DNA of 62,436 nucleotides, filler included, from Rhabdomonas costata (Eukaryota), in NCBI GenBank assembly GCA_019059605.1. It is 34 parts of 34 records of this genome, joined end to end, with 100 filler letters (N's around TTAATTAATTAA, not from the genome) between each part and the next. Parts side by side here need not be neighbours in the genome. Positions count along the whole stretch, not along the records: positions 36,797 to 38,536 come from JAHMHO010009810.1; 33 more parts are not named here. One strand, 5' to 3'. The position numbers were made by a program, and so were the translations under genes. Below the pieces are notes generated by a model that was given only the letters and a program-made list of their open reading frames with translations, was not told the origin of the DNA and did not search any database. Shown piece by piece: positions 17,778 to 62,436 of the stretch (its first letter is position 1; the number at the start of each line of letters is the position of its first letter).

Positions 17778-18084
17778 CTATGTTATTCGGACGAAGACTT
17801 CCACGACTCCATCCTGGGCGACTACGGAAAGCTCACTCACGGGGCACATCTTTCCGATTCCACGGTGGTGCCCCTTCTTCCCCTGACTGGGTCGAGAGCG
17901 AGACTCGCTGGAGACTTGCACCGTGTAGCGGTGCGTGCCCACTCGAAGCTCCACTTGTTGGAAGATGCAGGGCCAGGTCAGGTTGCAGTCATTGGCTCCA
18001 GGGATCAAACCCCAGAACAGCGCAAAGTGACCACCATTCTCCCGACTGTTTCCGTTGGGATACAGCAACAGCTCGAAGCAATAG
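17778..18084 (-). CDS. MATH/TRAF-domain protein, last exon
   Basis: Follows a polypyrimidine-CAG acceptor. YCFELLLYPNG...HFALFWGLIPGANDCNLTWP...VEVFVRIT* fits the TRAF-type MATH pattern LYPNG...GxxDxxLxWP. Confidence 0.7.
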
Positions 18085-18519
18085 CTGCGCAAGAAAAAGA
18101 GAAGGAACAGAACGCGGCTTATTAATTCTTGACAAACTGCAAGCACTAATTCTCAGCATAGAAACGTATAACTTTGGCGAGCAACCTGAATGGAAATTCC
18201 ATGAGTCTCTGCTAAAGGCAAAACCCACACAATACTTTTCGGAAACCTGATACGGGTAATATCAGTTCATCGGAAAGGCCTTAATAGCTTAATAGCNNNN
18301 NNNNNNNNNNNNNNNNNNNNNNNNNNNNNNNNNNNNNNNNTTAATTAATTAANNNNNNNNNNNNNNNNNNNNNNNNNNNNNNNNNNNNNNNNNNNNGTTG
18401 GTGGGGTGCAGCCGCGGGCGACCTGACGATTGTCGAAGCGGTGACACCGAAAACCGTCGCCGCCGCCATCTCTGCAGCCCCGGCTCCATCCGCCGTTGTG
18501 GGGGGCGATGCCAGCGAGG

Positions 18520-20249: not shown

Positions 20250-21920
20250 GCACTGCGATCCTGCTCGAGGCGATTCATGCGGGAATGATCTCTCCTCTGC
20301 TCGCGCAGGGGTCTCGGGCTGGGTTTGTTGGGCAGCTGCGGTCTGATCTTCGTCGACTTCTATGTGTGGAGGGTGTGTGTGTGCGTGTGTGTAGAGGTTT
20401 GTTTCCTTGTAACCTGTCTGTGTTTTCATGACTTGACACAAGGGGGTGGGTTTTTTCCGAGGCTTCTGTCAGGGGTTCGGCACCACGCACCGGTGGATGT
20501 GTGTGCAAGTGCACTGGGGTGGGAGTGCTGGGAGCGACACCATCTCGGCGATGCCAGAGTCTTTGTCTTCGGCGCTGACCTGAAAGAAGCCACTCTCGTG
20601 GATCTCCAAGGTCACCTCAACTTTGGGCTTCCCTCGGGGCTGCGGGGGAATCCCCTTCAGCTCAAGCTTGCCCAGCAGTCTGAGAAACCAACCACAAAAA
20701 ATGCAAAACGGTTGCCCCCCTCCCCGCCGACTAAGTGCCAGCTGTCTCTGTTACTGTGAGAATCGTGAAGTGCACTGTGTCTGTTTGCCAACGCTGCGTT
20801 GGGAATCGAGGGGACATACACTTTATTTGCTTGACATCAGAATAGCACACGCTCGCTCACACACCAAGAACACCGAAACGTCATCCCCGTGTAAAGCAAG
20901 ACCAGGTACGGGCGAAGAAACCAAATGGCTGACCATAGCTCTGCGCGTCCGCTTGGCATGCAGACGGACCTCTAACCGGCAGAAGTCACTTCCAACCGTC
21001 AGAGCTTTTGGGGAAACAACATAAGTAATGGCTGTGTGCACGATGTGTGCAACCATGTCTGCAAACAACCGAACCCGCAAATACTGCCGCAAAAGAAAAC
21101 GTCCCAAAGAGGTGCACGGTGAACAGAAGGCCGCCCGTCGCCTTGCACCGACCTGTTGTCCTTGGTCTTCGCCCGCTCTCCTTCGTACACCTGGATCAGC
21201 AGCGCTGCGGGCGGAAAAAGAAAAGAAATCCGCCTTCGCACAGCCGCAAAAACCACCACCATCTGAGCCCAAGCTGCACTTCTCATTGCATTCGACCCAT
21301 CAAATGACCTGAATGTTATGACCGTCAGTCCACACAGTAGAATACCAATGCACAACAAAAACGTGGGTGTGAGGCCGAAGCCCGGCTTAGGTGAGCACAT
21401 GACCAACCCATTCCCTCCCTTTGGGTAGGAACGTGAAAAGAAAAGCCGAGGTCGAGCACAGGGCAATTGCACACACACACACACACATTGCTGGTTGTCT
21501 GCGTTGGTGGACATTATCATCGACTTCTTTGCCGGGATCGGAGTGTTGCGCTCGATGAGGCGACTCATGATCCCACCCGCAGTCTCAACGCCCAGCGACA
21601 GAGAAAGGGGGTCCATCAAAACCGACCGAGGCACCTTGGGCCACTGAAACTGAGACACACACCCGAGCGTATATGCGCGAGCGAGCATGTGTGTATTTTT
21701 GACCATGGGCGGCCAACCCGATCACACCGATCGAGAACTCAGTCCATTGAACTCTTTTTGAAAAGCCCTCTCGAGGAAAGTATGCTGTGCGCAAACAGCT
21801 TATGAGCAAGACTCCACAGGAAAGCACTGGAGCAAACCACAGTCTCCGGGTAGGGTAATCCAGTCAAGAGGCAAGCCTGCTCGATGGCACCCTGCGCAAT
21901 CGCCTCGTCCGGGTTGACGC
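20250..21920 (-). CDS. Divergent Hsp70-family protein, end of NBD, linker and SBD (exons 21920-~21840, ~21635-21487, 21204-21153, 20679-20541, 20359-contig end)
   Basis: [75 protein letters not shown]. The junctions are GT-AG and in frame. Confidence 0.9.
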
Positions 21921-29463: not shown

Positions 29464-29761
29464 GTGGCCGTGCGGAGGTGTGTGTGTGTGTGGTGGTTTT
29501 TTTACTTGGGACGATGTCCTTCACGGTTTTTGTGTGATGAGCAGCATCATGCGATTCACTTTTTTGACACAGCGAGGGAGTATTGGACCGTCTATTTGTA
29601 TGTTGTTACCCCGGTATACTGCTTGAGCTTTGTCACCTGTTGTAATTGTTTTATGGGAAGCGCTGTCCGATTGTACTGCTGAGCTCAGTTGGGTGGCAAA
29701 TTTCGAGCCTTTTGAGTGCAAGTAAAAAAACCACCACACACACACACCTCCGCACGGCCAC
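29464..29761. repeat. Contig-terminal inverted repeat (29464-29508 vs 29719-29761); likely fold-back chimera
   Basis: The arms are reverse complements except for one GT unit, and they include exon and donor sequence of the adjacent gene. Confidence 0.85.
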
Positions 29762-30950
29762 GCTCCCACGTCTCCTCAATCGTGTTGATCATGTGCCGGG
29801 AGGCAAGCCCAAGCCCAAGCACCCCAAAAAGCGTGATGCCGAAGGCCGCGCCAAGAAGGATCAGCAGGTTCACAATCAACGGCCACTCTACCTCACTGAC
29901 GTCGATTTTAAGCATAAAAGCAATGCCCAGCTCAGGCATCGTATCAACCGCAGCCATGGTCTCCTTTCCACGATAGTCTATGCCCCAGAGCAATTTCCCA
30001 ACTGTAATTGTCGACGAGGACAATATCTGGGCGCCTTGACGGGCAATGCCACTGTTGCTGACGCACAAAGTCTTGCTGCAGTCCAAGTTGCGATACTTGA
30101 GATTGGAGAGCACCTGTAAAACATCATTGCGGCCCTTGTACGACTTACCCACCAGCAGCTCGAGTGAACCGGTCTGCTTAACGTTCTGATCATTGCTGTA
30201 CTGCACAGCCTGAGCGATGCCGTCATCGATAACCTCTTGGTCATCCATCTTCAGCACAATCCCTACCTTCAGGTCAGGCACGCAGCCATACGAAACCAGA
30301 ACCTTCACTCCACGGTAGTCGACATCCTCCGTAGACCCTGCGGCACACTGCACGGTAGCTAGACTGATGATGGCAGTGCTCGATTGATTGACGGGACAGG
30401 GACCTCCCGAGCAGTTGAACTTCGGTACAGTGAGCACCAACGCCCCAGTCGTGCCATTGGTCGTCACCTGCCTCGCTATCCTGATCTCAGAGGTGCCATT
30501 GAGCTGCGCGTTGATGGCATCCCCCGCGATGCCCAGATTTTCGATCACGTCGTCCCGAAGCTCAGCCATCTCAACCTCCATCACAAGCGTGGTGTTCAGC
30601 GGCGGCAGCAGGGCCGCCACCGCAAGCACCTCCTTGCCCTGATAGCTGTTGGCGATGACTATTTTGCTAGCTGAGACACCCCGAGGCCGCAGAAATCGCC
30701 TGCGCCGAGGCCTGGTCGTATACACAGGTTCCTCCGCTGCACAAGCTGGAGTTCATCGACGTCACCGGGGTCCCAGGAGAGGCCTGAGAAACCACCAGAA
30801 GCTCCATCGAGGTCTGACCTCGGGCTCGGGTGTCGGCATTCGCTGCGTTGGCGGAGGCGAGGATGAGGGGCATGAACTTCTTCTGCATTGCTGCGCTGGT
30901 GACAGTGAATATCAGCACCGTGTCATTCAGGCATTCCACCGGCATGTAAG
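29748..30950 (-). CDS. Receptor with tandem Cache-like extracellular modules and a TM helix; single 1.2-kb exon with one frameshift
   Basis: Three repeats: SYQGKEVLAV...LVMEVEMAEL, DYRGVKVLVSY...IVLKMDDQEV, DYRGKETMAAV...FMLKIDVSEV, then a TM segment. Frame changes at the G4 run 30679-30682. Confidence 0.8.
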
Positions 30951-31288: not shown

Positions 31289-32798
31289 GGTTTGCCTGGC
31301 GACGACTTCAGCACGGAGAACGGGGTGTTGGTCACGCGCGGTAACCGCTGGCCACTGATGATCGACCCCCAGGGCCAGGCCCTGAAGTGGATCAAGATGA
31401 TGGAGAAACCCCGTGGGCTCAAGGTCATTGTCCTTCCCCCCGTCGCACGATGCATTTCGTTTGGGAATGAATGCGCCAACAAACGTTAGCTCTTCCGGAA
31501 GAACTCGCTCGGTCACAGGTGATTCGGGGTTTGGGTCTGCCCCTGGCGGTCGTTTCCGAGACGGGCAATCAGATGCCACCAGAAGAGTTTCAGAGTCAAA
31601 ACCCAACAGTAGGACCTTGGCAGTGCATTTACAATGAACACATTTCACAAGGCGGTGAACCTGCAAGTATGTTAAACGGAGGTGCAAGTATGTGAAACGG
31701 AGGTCCCCGCACCCACCCTCAGGTCTTGGACATGAAGATGCCGGACTTCCTGCGGACCATCGAGCATGCCGTGCAGCTGGGGCAGCCCGTGTTGATGCAG
31801 GACGTGCTGGAGGAGCTGGACCCCAGCTTGGAGCCCATCCTCAGCCGTGCGGTGATTCGACAGGGCAGCCGCTTCGTGATCAAGATTGGCGATAACACCG
31901 TGGACTACCACGAGCAGTTCAAGTTCTACATCACCACCAAGCTGGTCTGCGTGTGTTTGTCCTTCAGCTTCAATCTTGAGGCCAGTGTTTTGGGGACGCG
32001 CTGCTCTTTGGGGTTATACGCATTTCCAAAGGAGAAAATTTCCTTTGTGGAACGTACGACATAACGTGTCATCACAACCCCCGCAGGCCCAGCGTTTCTG
32101 CCTCGTAGCCTGCTTTGGTCCAAAACTTCTCCCTCCCGTCCGCCCCGCGACAGCCCAGTCCTCAACAAGTTCTATATTCTGTGGTAATGGCCTCGCCCAA
32201 ACCCCTTGTACCAAAGGAATACTCTTCTAAGATGACCTCTTATATGTAAAGAAAGAAACATTAGAACAGCTTTTATTACCCTTGGCAACTGTCTCCCATC
32301 GATGGTGTCATCTCTTTTCAACAACGCCAACTCACCAAATCGCTCCCCCATTCTTACTCGCTCATACTTGGCCACTCCCTCGCTCGCCTACTGGTGCAAA
32401 GTTCTCGCGGCACACCCAGCACTGACTGCTGTACTCACAGTTGTTTCTGGTTTTGTGTCTTTCCTGAGGCTTTTCTTCTTCACCTGTCAAGTGTGCTTCC
32501 TCCCCTTTTTGCCCTCTCGTAGGCCAACCCATACTACAGCCCAGAGATCTGCACAAAGACCATCCTGGTGAACTTTGCGGTGAAGGAGCAGGGGCTGGAG
32601 GACCAGCTGCTGAAGACCGTGGTACGCCGCGAGAAGGCCGACCTGGAGGAACAGAAGGACGAGCTCGTGCTCAACGTCGCGGCGGCCAAGAAGCGCACCA
32701 AGGAGCTCGAGGATAAGATCCTCAGGCTGCTCGCGAACAGCGATGAGAGTCTTCTGGAAGATGTTAACCTGGTCAATACTCTGCAGACCTCGAAGCAG
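31289..32798 (+). CDS. Axonemal dynein heavy chain, AAA5 region, DNAH2/DHC1-beta-like (exons to 31423, 31723-31944, 32523-32798)
   Basis: [11 protein letters not shown]...[45 protein letters not shown]...[15 protein letters not shown]. Phase-0 GT-AG introns. Confidence 0.95.
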
Positions 32799-32861
32799 GT
32801 TTGGGTCGTCCACCAGTTGTCTAGCAAGACTCTGCTCGTTTTGCTGGAGTGGAATGTGGTC

Positions 32862-33017
32862 TTGTGGTCTTGGCCTTTGTGTTTGCTGGAGAAAGTGTCA
32901 TTTATACCGTGGTGAACACTTTTATTTGGCAACTCATGAATCCACGTGTAAAAAAAAAAGTGTTCACCACGGTATAAATGACACTTTCTCCAGCAAACAC
33001 AAAGGCCAAGACCACAA
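32862..33017. repeat. Perfect 62-bp contig-terminal inverted repeat (32862-32923 vs 32956-33017)
   Basis: Exact reverse complement with a 32-nt loop, ending at the contig end. Confidence 0.9.
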
Positions 33018-36696: not shown

Positions 36697-36877
36697 NNNN
36701 NNNNNNNNNNNNNNNNNNNNNNNNNNNNNNNNNNNNNNNNTTAATTAATTAANNNNNNNNNNNNNNNNNNNNNNNNNNNNNNNNNNNNNNNNNNNNTTTG
36801 TGGGGTCCATAGGCACGACCACCCAAAGAGGTAGGAGCCACGTAAGAGTTCCCGCAGCATAGTTGGAGTGTGACACT

Positions 36878-36889
36878 TGGTAGCAGCGG
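36878..36889 (+). promoter_or_regulatory. Primer-binding site (tRNA-iMet type); degenerate copies at 36948, 37036, 37098, 37135 and 37495
   Basis: Resembles TGGTAGCAGAG, the complement of the 3' end of eukaryotic initiator tRNA. Preceded by CA plus 2 nt. Confidence 0.65.
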
Positions 36890-37519
36890 ATTGTTTACGA
36901 CCAGCGTTTAGCGGAACGTGCGAGAAAAAGTCTACCAGGTTGGCACCTGGTGGCAGAGGAGTAAGTCGAGAAAGCCCCGTGCGGATCGAGGAGTGCAGCT
37001 CTGCGTTGGAGTACCACTTACCACTTTGTGAGACCTGATAGCAGAGTATAGTTGAAAGTCCAAGCCCCTAAAGAGTGCAGCGTGCATCGTTGGCACGTGT
37101 TAGCAGAGTTTGCGTTGGACCAAATTGAGCGCATTGGGAGCAGAGTCCGCGGAGAAATCAAGCGAGGGGTGTTCCACATTTACTAGTGGTTGCAGGGGTT
37201 CAGAGCGCAAAAGACTCCCACCTCCTAGAGAGGAAGGCCGCGAAAACAAGAAAAGATATGCGAGCAATCCATCCACATAGTGCGGGTAGATATTTACTGT
37301 TGGTAAATCCACACAGGGGATTAGTAGGGGAAAGGAAAAGTGCGGCCGCAGGCTCAATGGCAGCGCAGAGGACGCGAGGAGACCCAAGCGACCTAATAGT
37401 GAATCCTGAGCACAGAGGCACAGAATTCCCCCTCCCCCCGAGTGGAGGTCTTCCAGAGGCAGCGCAATACCGAGGGGAGCTAAGTACCATCAATTGGTAA
37501 TCAGAGGGGGAGACGAGTC

Positions 37520-38536
37520 ATGTCAGGAAATCCCCCGCCCCCTAACCCAAGCGCAGCACCAACACCAGCGATGGAGCAAACTTTTCTTACTCAAATGGTT
37601 TCATTCTTTCAGAGCATGGAGCAGCAACAGAGGGCAAATCACGATCTTACTCAGGAGTTGCTGCGCAGAGTGGTTGCTGTGCCCCCAGCAGAAGGTTCGC
37701 AGAGTGGAGGATGCGCCCGCATACACAGTCCCAGAAGTAGCCGGAGCGTTGCGAAAGTTGCAAGAGAAATATCCAGAGTTCCCGAAGTACGACTGGTATC
37801 CAGGAAATTTATTGCCATTGTTGGTTTCTGTAGAGGAACTGAAGGATTTCCGGAGACTTCCAGATCAGGTGGCAATCATCGACGCCACAGGAGCTTTGGG
37901 ATCATACGCTAGAGGGATCGTAGCGCCAGGCCAGACGTTTGCCAACTGGAAAGATTTTGTTGAAACGCTCAAGAGGCGGCTGTGCTCCCAGACCTGGGAC
38001 TATAATGTGGTTTGGAGGTTGGAGAAGCTGAAGATTTCAGAAGGAAACTTTCAGTTTTACCATAAGCAGTTTGTGACTGGGATGAATTTGCTGAAGGGAA
38101 CGATGTTTGAGAGCGAGACCTTATTGCAGTACCTGTTCGTAAGATTGGAAGGGGACATCCAGGCGAAGGTGATGGCGAAGAATCCGAGGAGCCTGAACGA
38201 GGCCATGAAAAAGGCCTGGAGTATTTCCGCAAGCCGAGACCCCATCCACAGGTAATCGTTGCTGCTCCAGAGGGTGCAGTTCAGAGAAGCATAGCGACGG
38301 GGGGCACGTCAATGGATTTAGACGCCATACGATACGGGTACACCCCGTTTTCGTGGAGTAAGGCATTTCTGACGTCGGGAGAGCGGAGTGCAGCCGGTGC
38401 CACATTCACAACTTCAAGAGGGGTGTCATATGTGAGCATGTTGCGGAGGAATTCGAATCTTTTTGAGATGTCGGCGTCTCCGACACTAGCCGCAACAGTG
38501 CCAGCTAGTTCAGTGATGTTTTCCACCAAACCCCAC
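37520..38536 (+). pseudogene. gag: Retrotransposon Gag, interrupted by three +1 homopolymer frameshifts
   Basis: WKDFVETLKRRL...LEKLK...YHKQF...LEGDIQAKV...PRSLNEAMKKA is capsid-like, and the downstream SMDLDAI matches the gypsy PMDLD motif. Confidence 0.8.
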
Positions 38537-61616: not shown

Positions 61617-62436
61617 GTACGAACTCCCCTCCTCCTCTTCCTAACCAGCATTGGAATCTCATAAGAACACTGCGCTCATTCAAAAAAAAAGATTCAAAAG
61701 CGATGAAGCCGGAGCGTTGCGAAGCGATTTTTCGCCTCTTTTTTTTTTGCGCTGGTGCTCTGCCCTGCTACTGGTTGAGAAGCACTTGCCCGCCCACCCA
61801 TTCAGACTCACGATCCCTTTCACCGTCCTTCTTTGCATCTTTTTCGGCAAGCGTTCTGGCTGAGCGTTTTCTTGATGGGGTTGATGAGGTGTAGGGGTGA
61901 GGTGCTCACATTTGGAGTCCTTGTTCCAATTGAGTGGCAGAAACCTCACCCACATTGCTCTGGCGTGCGTTATGGAGCCCGCACTCGATGTGGAATGTCG
62001 CCCTGTGCGAGATTTTTCTTGGGGAAAGTGGCTGCTTATGATTACGATTGCCCTTCTCTTTGCGCAGGACGGTGGAGTTGGTCGACCCGAGAAACCCGTG
62101 GTGTGTCCGTGTTTCCCTATGATTTGTGGGCCAAACGGTGAGTGGCGATGGGATGTGCTTTGATTTGGTCAGCTCCCAGGCTGCGCGCGGTTAGGGGCAG
62201 CTTTTTTTTCTATCGTCGCTCTCGTTCACGTGTGTGTGTGTGTGTGTGTGTGTGTGAGCGGGAGACCAGAGAGGGAGTGAGGAAGCAATACGGAGGGCCC
62301 ACAAAGGGATGCCCGGGCAAGTGGAGAGTGGAGAGAAGCGAGGTCCAGATGGTAGCAGGGACAGAGCGGGTCCAAGCCCGGAGTGGGATGGAGGACCCAA
62401 ACCCAGAAGGGCAATAGCGCCCAAAAAGAAGTGTAC

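Follow-up and report, generated by a model that had tools for sequence, protein, structure and literature searches.

Introduction

In retroviruses and LTR retrotransposons the primer-binding site (PBS) is the point at which replication starts. Under the conventional tRNA numbering, A76, C75 and C74 are the partners of PBS positions 1-3; the discriminator base is opposite position 4, and the acceptor stem is opposite positions 5-11. The end of U5, a spacer and up to 18 nt of PBS make up the 3' end of plus-strand strong-stop DNA. To our knowledge, a single PBS is usual in published accounts of LTR elements and retroviruses. The yeast elements Ty1 and Ty3 are primed by initiator tRNA, and extra segments of their RNA contact the same tRNA beyond the short PBS, at its T and D arms. 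The Drosophila gypsy 5' leader contains repeated Su(Hw) binding sites between the PBS and gag, and short repeats are common in LTRs. Engineered retroviral vectors with two primer-binding sites have reportedly been made by Voronin and Pathak, in J Virol 2004, under a title that is said to report frequent dual initiation. In the available parts of two reports, TGGTAGCAGAGC is the strictly conserved PBS of the metazoan GalEa (copia) elements, in which it lies directly after the 5' LTR and is complementary to the 3' end of Drosophila tRNA-Met (PMC5445492, PMC3587641). An 18-nt PBS complementary to human initiator tRNA-Met appears as a printed primer (PMC1797187). In mammals the PBS is a target of host silencing by tRNA fragments, and PBS-derived target sites for 3' tRNA fragments are found in mouse 5' UTRs (PMC12853362, in its available part).

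Here we describe a leader from Rhabdomonas costata (GenBank assembly GCA_019059605.1) in which one initiator-type PBS is followed by four firm echoes and possibly by up to two weak ones. The feature is real and statistically solid. In our preferred reading, to which we give a probability of about 55%, the echoes are disarmed duplicates that were made at the PBS during reverse transcription and have been carried by the lineage. No description of a natural array of multiple, duplicated or tandem PBSs was found in the literature searched, which lay mostly outside the subscription journals.

Results

The contig and its leader

The window, i.e., the whole stretch of DNA analysed (62,436 nt), consists of 34 contigs, each 1734-1751 nt long and apparently in size order, strung together by linkers of the form N44-TTAATTAATTAA-N44 that carry stops in all six frames. 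Because the contigs are chained by linkers, neighbouring stretches are not physically linked. The array and gag lie together on one unplaced contig of 1740 nt (36797-38536; JAHMHO010009810.1), which ends within gag. The element is known from a single copy on a 1.74-kb contig, with 79 nt before the first CA, and the LTR end was inferred from that CA. A blastn comparison of the array contig with all 34 contigs returned itself and one 17-nt chance match only, and no LTR pair, sister copy or host tRNA was found within the 62,436-nt window. The parts of the contig are as follows.

36697 to 36796, no strand: assembly linker (N44-TTAATTAATTAA-N44) between an unrelated contig and the contig of the element, which begins at 36797
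36797 to 36875, plus strand: presumed U5 tail, the final 79 nt of the 5' LTR, with GTGTGACA at its end; placed by the CA two bases before the 18-nt PBS
36878 to 36895, plus strand: unit 1, 18-nt initiator-tRNA-Met-type primer-binding site TGGTAGCAGCGGATTGTT, 2 nt past the CA at 36874-36875; 16/18 against the human tRNAiMet PBS
36939 to 36958, plus strand: unit 2, 20-nt junction copy GTTGGCACC+TGGTGGCAGAG; mismatch at position 5 (A to G, G-U pair possible)
37027 to 37053, plus strand: unit 3, unit 1 junction copied over 27 nt, TGTGAGACC+TGATAGCAGAGTATAGTT; CA changed to GA; mismatch at position 3; 78% family; 15/18 against the human tRNAiMet PBS
37089 to 37108, plus strand: unit 4, 20-nt junction copy GTTGGCACG+TGTTAGCAGAG; mismatch at position 3; 85% to unit 2
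37127 to 37145, plus strand: unit 5, shortest copy, GAGCGCAT+TGGGAGCAGAG; one-base spacer; mismatch at position 4
37187 to 37197, plus strand: possible sixth, weaker copy TGGTTGCAGGG; 2 mismatches; marginal
37495 to 37506, plus strand: motif TGGTAATCAGAG, 25 nt ahead of the gag ATG; one mismatch and one inserted base; marginal; an upstream TACCA can pair with its TGGTA
37520 to 38536, plus strand: 5' part of gag, cut off by the end of the contig; open segments 37520-37699, 37701-38219 and 38222-38536; two frame changes

Several features of leader composition were also observed. The leader (36797-37519) is purine-rich on the plus strand, with G or A at 428 of 723 bases, and against the background of the window it is enriched for CAGAG (9 vs 1.07), AGGGG (6 vs 0.84) and GTTGG (6 vs 1.12). 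A palindrome, GCGGCCGC, lies at about 37344. The pentamer TACCA, which is the reverse complement of TGGTA and resembles a tRNA 3' end, occurs four times, at 36933, 37012, 37019 and 37485, compared with 0.57 expected (1 of 2000 leader shuffles reaches four). Two of the four form a 7-nt tandem, TACCACT, and three are just upstream of PBS-like motifs, with which they can pair.

Elsewhere in the window are host gene fragments, i.e., dynein heavy-chain AAA_9 (two exon-like pieces), a piece of HSP70 and a MATH domain, located at 31696-32912 (+), 21002-21721 (-), 17781-18152 (-) and 29688-30752 (-, listed with a 355-aa ORF). The sole relative of the 355-aa ORF was a EukProt entry, at 70% identity over 34% of the query. 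Pfam assigned a family to 8 of the 147 ORFs of the window, dynein, HSP70, MATH, RRM and WD40 being among the families. Such fragments point to a eukaryote that has a flagellum and introns.

Statistics of the array

A sequence-only reading of this leader had reported six motif strings built on a PBS-like core, and every one was found where it had been placed. Copies of TGGTAGCAGAG start at 36878, 36948, 37036, 37098 and 37135, so that the array spans 36878-37145; each copy has one mismatch (10/11), and the start-to-start distances of 70, 88, 62 and 37 nt agree with the reported spacing of 37-88 nt. When TGGTAGCAGAG was sought throughout the window at no more than one mismatch, 6 matches were obtained vs 0.88 expected; none of 100 shuffles reached 6, and 5 of the 6 matches fell within 36878-37145. 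The sixth, TGGTAGCAGGG at 62350-62360, is on an unrelated contig, has no CA junction or gag nearby, and was taken as chance. A (GT)n microsatellite was seen at 62230-62257. For the 723-nt leader alone, the 5 matches compare with an average of 0.03 over 2000 dinucleotide-preserving shuffles, no one of which gave more than 1. Shuffled leader had been put forward in the sequence-only reading as a check, and none of the 2000 reached 2 matches vs the 5 observed.

The motifs at 37187 and 37495 are a different matter: taken jointly they gave 2 matches vs 0.35 expected (p about 0.04), which is marginal. The reported recurrence of the motif at least six times therefore stands for five copies, which are far above chance, but the motif at 37495 is only marginally so. 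A spacer block said to be shared, AAGCCCC / GAGTGCAGC / GTTGG, is indeed common to units 3 and 4 (p = 0.006).

The array was not called by Tandem Repeats Finder, whose sole row was a 7-nt repeat at 37012-37026; for that program the units differ too much in sequence and in length. Unit lengths range from 37 to 92 nt, and the units lack the similar length and full-length, head-to-tail homology of a tandem repeat or satellite. In a repeat search, four units shared a core of 20 nt, and units 1 and 3 a longer one of 27 nt (78%).

Chance, low complexity or an assembly artefact might be suspected, given a short unplaced contig, two frame changes in gag and a leader in which 428 of 723 bases are G or A. 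That explanation is effectively refuted, since none of 2000 composition-matched shuffles reached even 2 matches, and since assembly errors yield identical copies, not diverged copies with unique spacers.

Identity of the primer-binding site

The 18-nt site complementary to human initiator tRNA-Met was sought throughout the window at up to 3 mismatches, and only two matches were found, at 36878-36895 (2 mismatches) and 37036-37053 (3 mismatches), vs 0.04 expected. These are proxy matches, with other species standing in for the host tRNA: 16/18 and 15/18 to the human site, and 10/11 to the Drosophila-type GalEa PBS. The earlier proposal of an initiator-Met type of primer site was borne out by units 1 and 3, at 16/18 and 15/18 vs the human PBS, together with the likeness to the GalEa 11-mer as given in the available parts of the GalEa reports. 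Unit 1 alone has an intact CA and, counted from the primer end, nine bases without a mismatch. The 16/18 match, the CA 2 nt before it and the nine perfect primer-end bases make unit 1, by the human proxy, a full-length initiator-type PBS. The site at 36878-36895 is located 2 nt past a CA, i.e., within a few bases of what would be the terminal CA of the 5' LTR, the LTR end itself being inferred. On this sequence evidence we take unit 1 (36878-36895) to be the putative working PBS and 36875 to be the probable LTR end.

A different placement of the LTR would put all of 36797-37494 in the LTR and make the motif at 37495 the true PBS, the five-motif array then being a repeat inside the LTR. The 37495 motif follows CA-AT and is near the ATG, as in some compact elements, and the array could be a short LTR repeat of the common kind. 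We consider this placement very unlikely. The 37495 motif needs an inserted base, is only marginally above chance, and does not match the 18-nt initiator PBS within 3 mismatches; further, two tRNA complements of 15-16/18 behind CA-like junctions would be left unexplained inside an LTR.

A tRNA-derived element, such as a tRNA pseudogene or a SINE head, was also considered and rejected, there being no tRNA fold or tRNA sequence past the acceptor end by ARAGORN or Rfam. ARAGORN found 0 tRNA genes in the whole window, and an Rfam scan of 36797-37560 with E values up to 10 gave only a chance match to a CRISPR repeat and no tRNA-like match.

The gag segment and the age of the copy

As the sequence-only reading had it, the ATG at 37520 opens gag, 25 nt past the 37495 motif. 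The three gag segments total 1014 nt and contain 0 stop codons; relatives align to them in two reading frames, with two frame changes. The frame shifts, at 37690-37740 and 38207-38222, the second back to the original frame, may be real indels or sequencing errors in a low-grade contig. In Pfam the segment matched Ty3_capsid at E = 4.2e-05 and 23.5 bits, under the cut-off of 29.1, and by feature similarity its atlas neighbours are Retrotrans_gag clusters. Among the 147 ORFs scanned in the window, the weak gag match was the sole retroelement domain, and no pol was found on the array contig. The description of the element as gypsy-like is thus plausible, given the sub-threshold Ty3_capsid match and the likeness to gag clusters, but with no pol on the contig it is not established.

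A full-library protein search gave 53 gag relatives at E values up to 0.001, the best at 69-73% identity. Ten of the relatives were looked up, and these were metagenome or uninformatively named records; 2 of the 10 clusters had names, also uninformative. The longer relatives P0002, P0011 and P0013 have a CCHC knuckle in a region corresponding to sequence beyond the array contig. A protein search for longer gag relatives found none, and a protein search for near ones found 4 short ENA fragments.

About 4.9% of the possible substitutions in gag would create a stop, and the lack of any stop in 1014 nt indicates that this copy of the element is little decayed and young. The joint probability of no stop in gag and at least 5 changes in the 55 motif bases was about 0.012 or less at every divergence tried. 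We therefore rejected as unlikely a history in which all five 11-mers were perfect at insertion and mutated later. The nearly intact gag and the joint probability indicate that imperfect copies were probably already present in the active progenitor, before this insertion, assuming roughly even mutation.

Anatomy and origin of the copies

The copies are not limited to the PBS. The 9 bases before the PBS, CA included, were copied too, with 7/9 the same in units 1 and 3 and 8/9 in units 2 and 4. The pre-PBS bases read TGTGA(C/G)AC(T/C) in units 1 and 3 and GTTGGCAC(C/G) in units 2 and 4, and unit 5 is shorter. Because the echoes include pre-PBS bases, their source is the element's own U5/PBS junction, not a tRNA or a tRNA gene. 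Serial duplication of U5-PBS, one of the origins suggested in the sequence-only reading, fits with copies that hold the 9 pre-PBS bases at these levels of identity (7/9 for units 1-3, 8/9 for units 2-4).

The 20-nt cores are 70-85% alike between units, and the spacers look random. With the 20-nt core removed, 2 of the 10 spacer pairs were significant (units 3 and 4, p = 0.006; units 3 and 5, p = 0.005), and the summed score gave p = 0.024; a stricter scoring likewise showed the spacers to be almost unrelated. The two parts of the unit group differently: by core, unit 1 goes with unit 3 and unit 2 with unit 4; by spacer, unit 3 goes with unit 4 and with unit 5. Tandem duplication of an A-B dimer was rejected, the spacers of units 1 and 3 (p = 0.56) and of units 2 and 4 (p = 0.58) not being similar. 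Since the core and spacer groupings disagree, patch-wise copying or conversion fits better than tandem duplication of whole units.

We propose the following course of events. The contig would open within the 5' LTR, 79 nt short of its end at the CA of 36874-36875, and the first site, 36878-36895, would prime minus-strand DNA synthesis. The next 270 nt of leader would contain four older, diverged echoes of a patch from the U5 end and PBS, each patch presumably consisting of the last 9-17 nt of U5, a spacer of 1-2 nt and 11-18 nt of PBS; such a patch would correspond to the 3' end of plus-strand strong-stop DNA. The echoes would be by-products of reverse transcription, in which strand transfer was misaligned or the template was switched at the PBS, and the active lineage would have carried them along as a degenerate array. 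They are most likely disarmed and no longer prime, the CCA and discriminator pairing having been lost and the acceptor-stem complement (A/G)GCAGAG kept. What the sequence shows is the anatomy, the statistics and, by proxy, what the PBS is; the origin in reverse-transcription errors, the age of the echoes and the loss of priming are the proposed parts of this account, and the mechanism of strand transfer is taken from general retrovirology. A neutral relic alone leaves the likeness of cores vs spacers unexplained; some constraint, or repeated re-copying, is needed.

Priming by the copies and possible functions

The sequence-only reading had suggested that the copies might act as alternative priming sites. 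In units 2-5 the mismatches in the 11-mer are at positions 5, 3, 3 and 4, a clustering that involves four sites and was noticed after the fact, and GCAG.G is invariant in all five units. Mismatches at positions 3-5 are opposite the tRNA 3' end, and unit 2 would in addition be held in a predicted hairpin of 9 bp, so the suggestion is a weak one. Given those mismatches, we regard alternative priming by the downstream copies as unlikely, with moderate confidence. Priming at a downstream site would leave part of the leader beyond the right-hand LTR, at the end of the DNA, and integrase presumably could not use such an end. The echoes could perhaps anneal to tRNAiMet through its acceptor strand, or to 3' fragments of that tRNA, judging from the bases retained.

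Predicted RNA structure was examined for the leader. The partner of unit 2 in the 9-bp hairpin is the upstream CUACCAGGU; for unit 3 the predicted partner is a segment with CUCUGC, also upstream. The fold of a 404-nt leader segment was no more stable than those of shuffles (z = +0.59), and none of six local folds was significant (z from -1.44 to +1.13). Because the folds are no more stable than those of shuffles, the hairpins that would sequester units 2 and 3 are weak evidence.

The conservation of the core raised the question of function. The array might dock initiator tRNA-Met, by its 3' acceptor strand, at sites that do not prime, or it might shield the true PBS by absorbing 3' tRNA fragments directed at the PBS; in the docking version, several tRNAs would be loaded into particles, or two genomes would be bridged. 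Consistent with such a function, the core has diverged far less than the spacers, units 2-5 keep the acceptor-stem complement (A/G)GCAGAG and lose the bases that allow primer extension, and the imperfect copies probably predate the insertion. Further, repression of LTR elements via the PBS, and action at sites in 5' UTRs, have been reported for 3' tRNA fragments (available part of PMC12853362). On the other hand, seven to eight base pairs make for weak binding, and repeated re-copying without selection could give the same pattern. We judge a functional array unlikely, but a credible alternative. The stronger proposal is that the lineage deliberately keeps a battery of disarmed PBS copies, which would each hold the acceptor end of initiator tRNA, or 3' fragments of it, yet could not be extended; they would serve either as a sponge shielding the single working PBS from tRNA-fragment silencing or as a rack loading several initiator tRNAs and, by way of these, a second genome. 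This proposal is speculative, and we consider it unlikely.

The core might instead be an array of protein-binding sites, either a packaging signal for the element's own nucleocapsid or sites for a host factor, as in the Drosophila gypsy leader, with the likeness to the PBS being historical or incidental. A short conserved core with variable, unrelated spacers is what such an array would look like. Also in its favour, the leader has 9 plus-strand copies of CAGAG, some of them past the end of the array (shuffle mean 3.1; 4 of 2000 shuffles reach 9), and CTCTG occurs just once. But units 1 and 3 match the 18-nt tRNA complement, and all units have a junction of CA or a CA-like dinucleotide, a spacer and TG, which a protein site would have no reason to mimic. 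Protein binding as the basis of the core is accordingly a quite unlikely explanation. Duplication at the PBS during reverse transcription remains our preferred origin of the echoes.

Search for related leaders

Relatives of the gag were sought in other collections. Metagenome contigs searched by gag gave 1 locus (L001), at 51% identity, which starts inside gag and so is without leader; two scans each of viral contigs and of prokaryote genome contigs by gag gave 0 relatives. Viral contigs were also scanned for a pattern of two perfect 11-mers 26-87 nt apart, which yielded 6 loci from 5 contigs. All 6 were rejected, being repeats in apparent phage or giant-virus coding sequence rather than retroelement leaders; two of them, L003 and L007, are the same region. 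That region, at about 1990-2611 of a 68-kb IMG/VR contig, is a 30-nt tandem repeat of at least 21 units with TGGTAGCAGAGGATGA in each. It looks intragenic in a phage and is unrelated to retroelements.

Discussion

The R. costata leader is a single damaged copy without relatives, and as such it is a lead, not a result. A natural leader with a working PBS and conserved, non-extendable copies of it could be a fossil record of strand-transfer failure at the PBS. Alternatively, if a function were true, the array would be a counter-measure, or a packaging device, built from the PBS itself.

Each of the known systems shares some part of this arrangement. The mouse 5' UTR sites resemble it in having a PBS-type sequence in a leader that can be bound by 3' tRNA fragments; those sites are single, with no arrays described in the available part of the report, and here the sequence is repeated (PMC12853362). 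The Su(Hw) array of gypsy has a short conserved core, variable spacers and a location in the interval from PBS to gag, as here, but the gypsy core consists of protein sites, whereas here the core was copied from the U5/PBS junction of the element itself. In Ty1 and Ty3 the extra boxes pair with other parts of the tRNA; in R. costata it is the complement of the acceptor end that is repeated, so that each copy would need its own tRNA. The two-PBS vectors also have more than one PBS per genomic RNA; they are artificial and their second site is intact, whereas this array is natural and its downstream sites are mismatched at the primer end. In GalEa-type elements, as far as the available parts of the reports describe them, the initiator PBS is the same 11-mer, placed 2 nt after the terminal CA of the LTR and followed by gag; but those elements have one PBS after the LTR, and the R. 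costata leader has four to six further copies of the junction within 270-620 nt.
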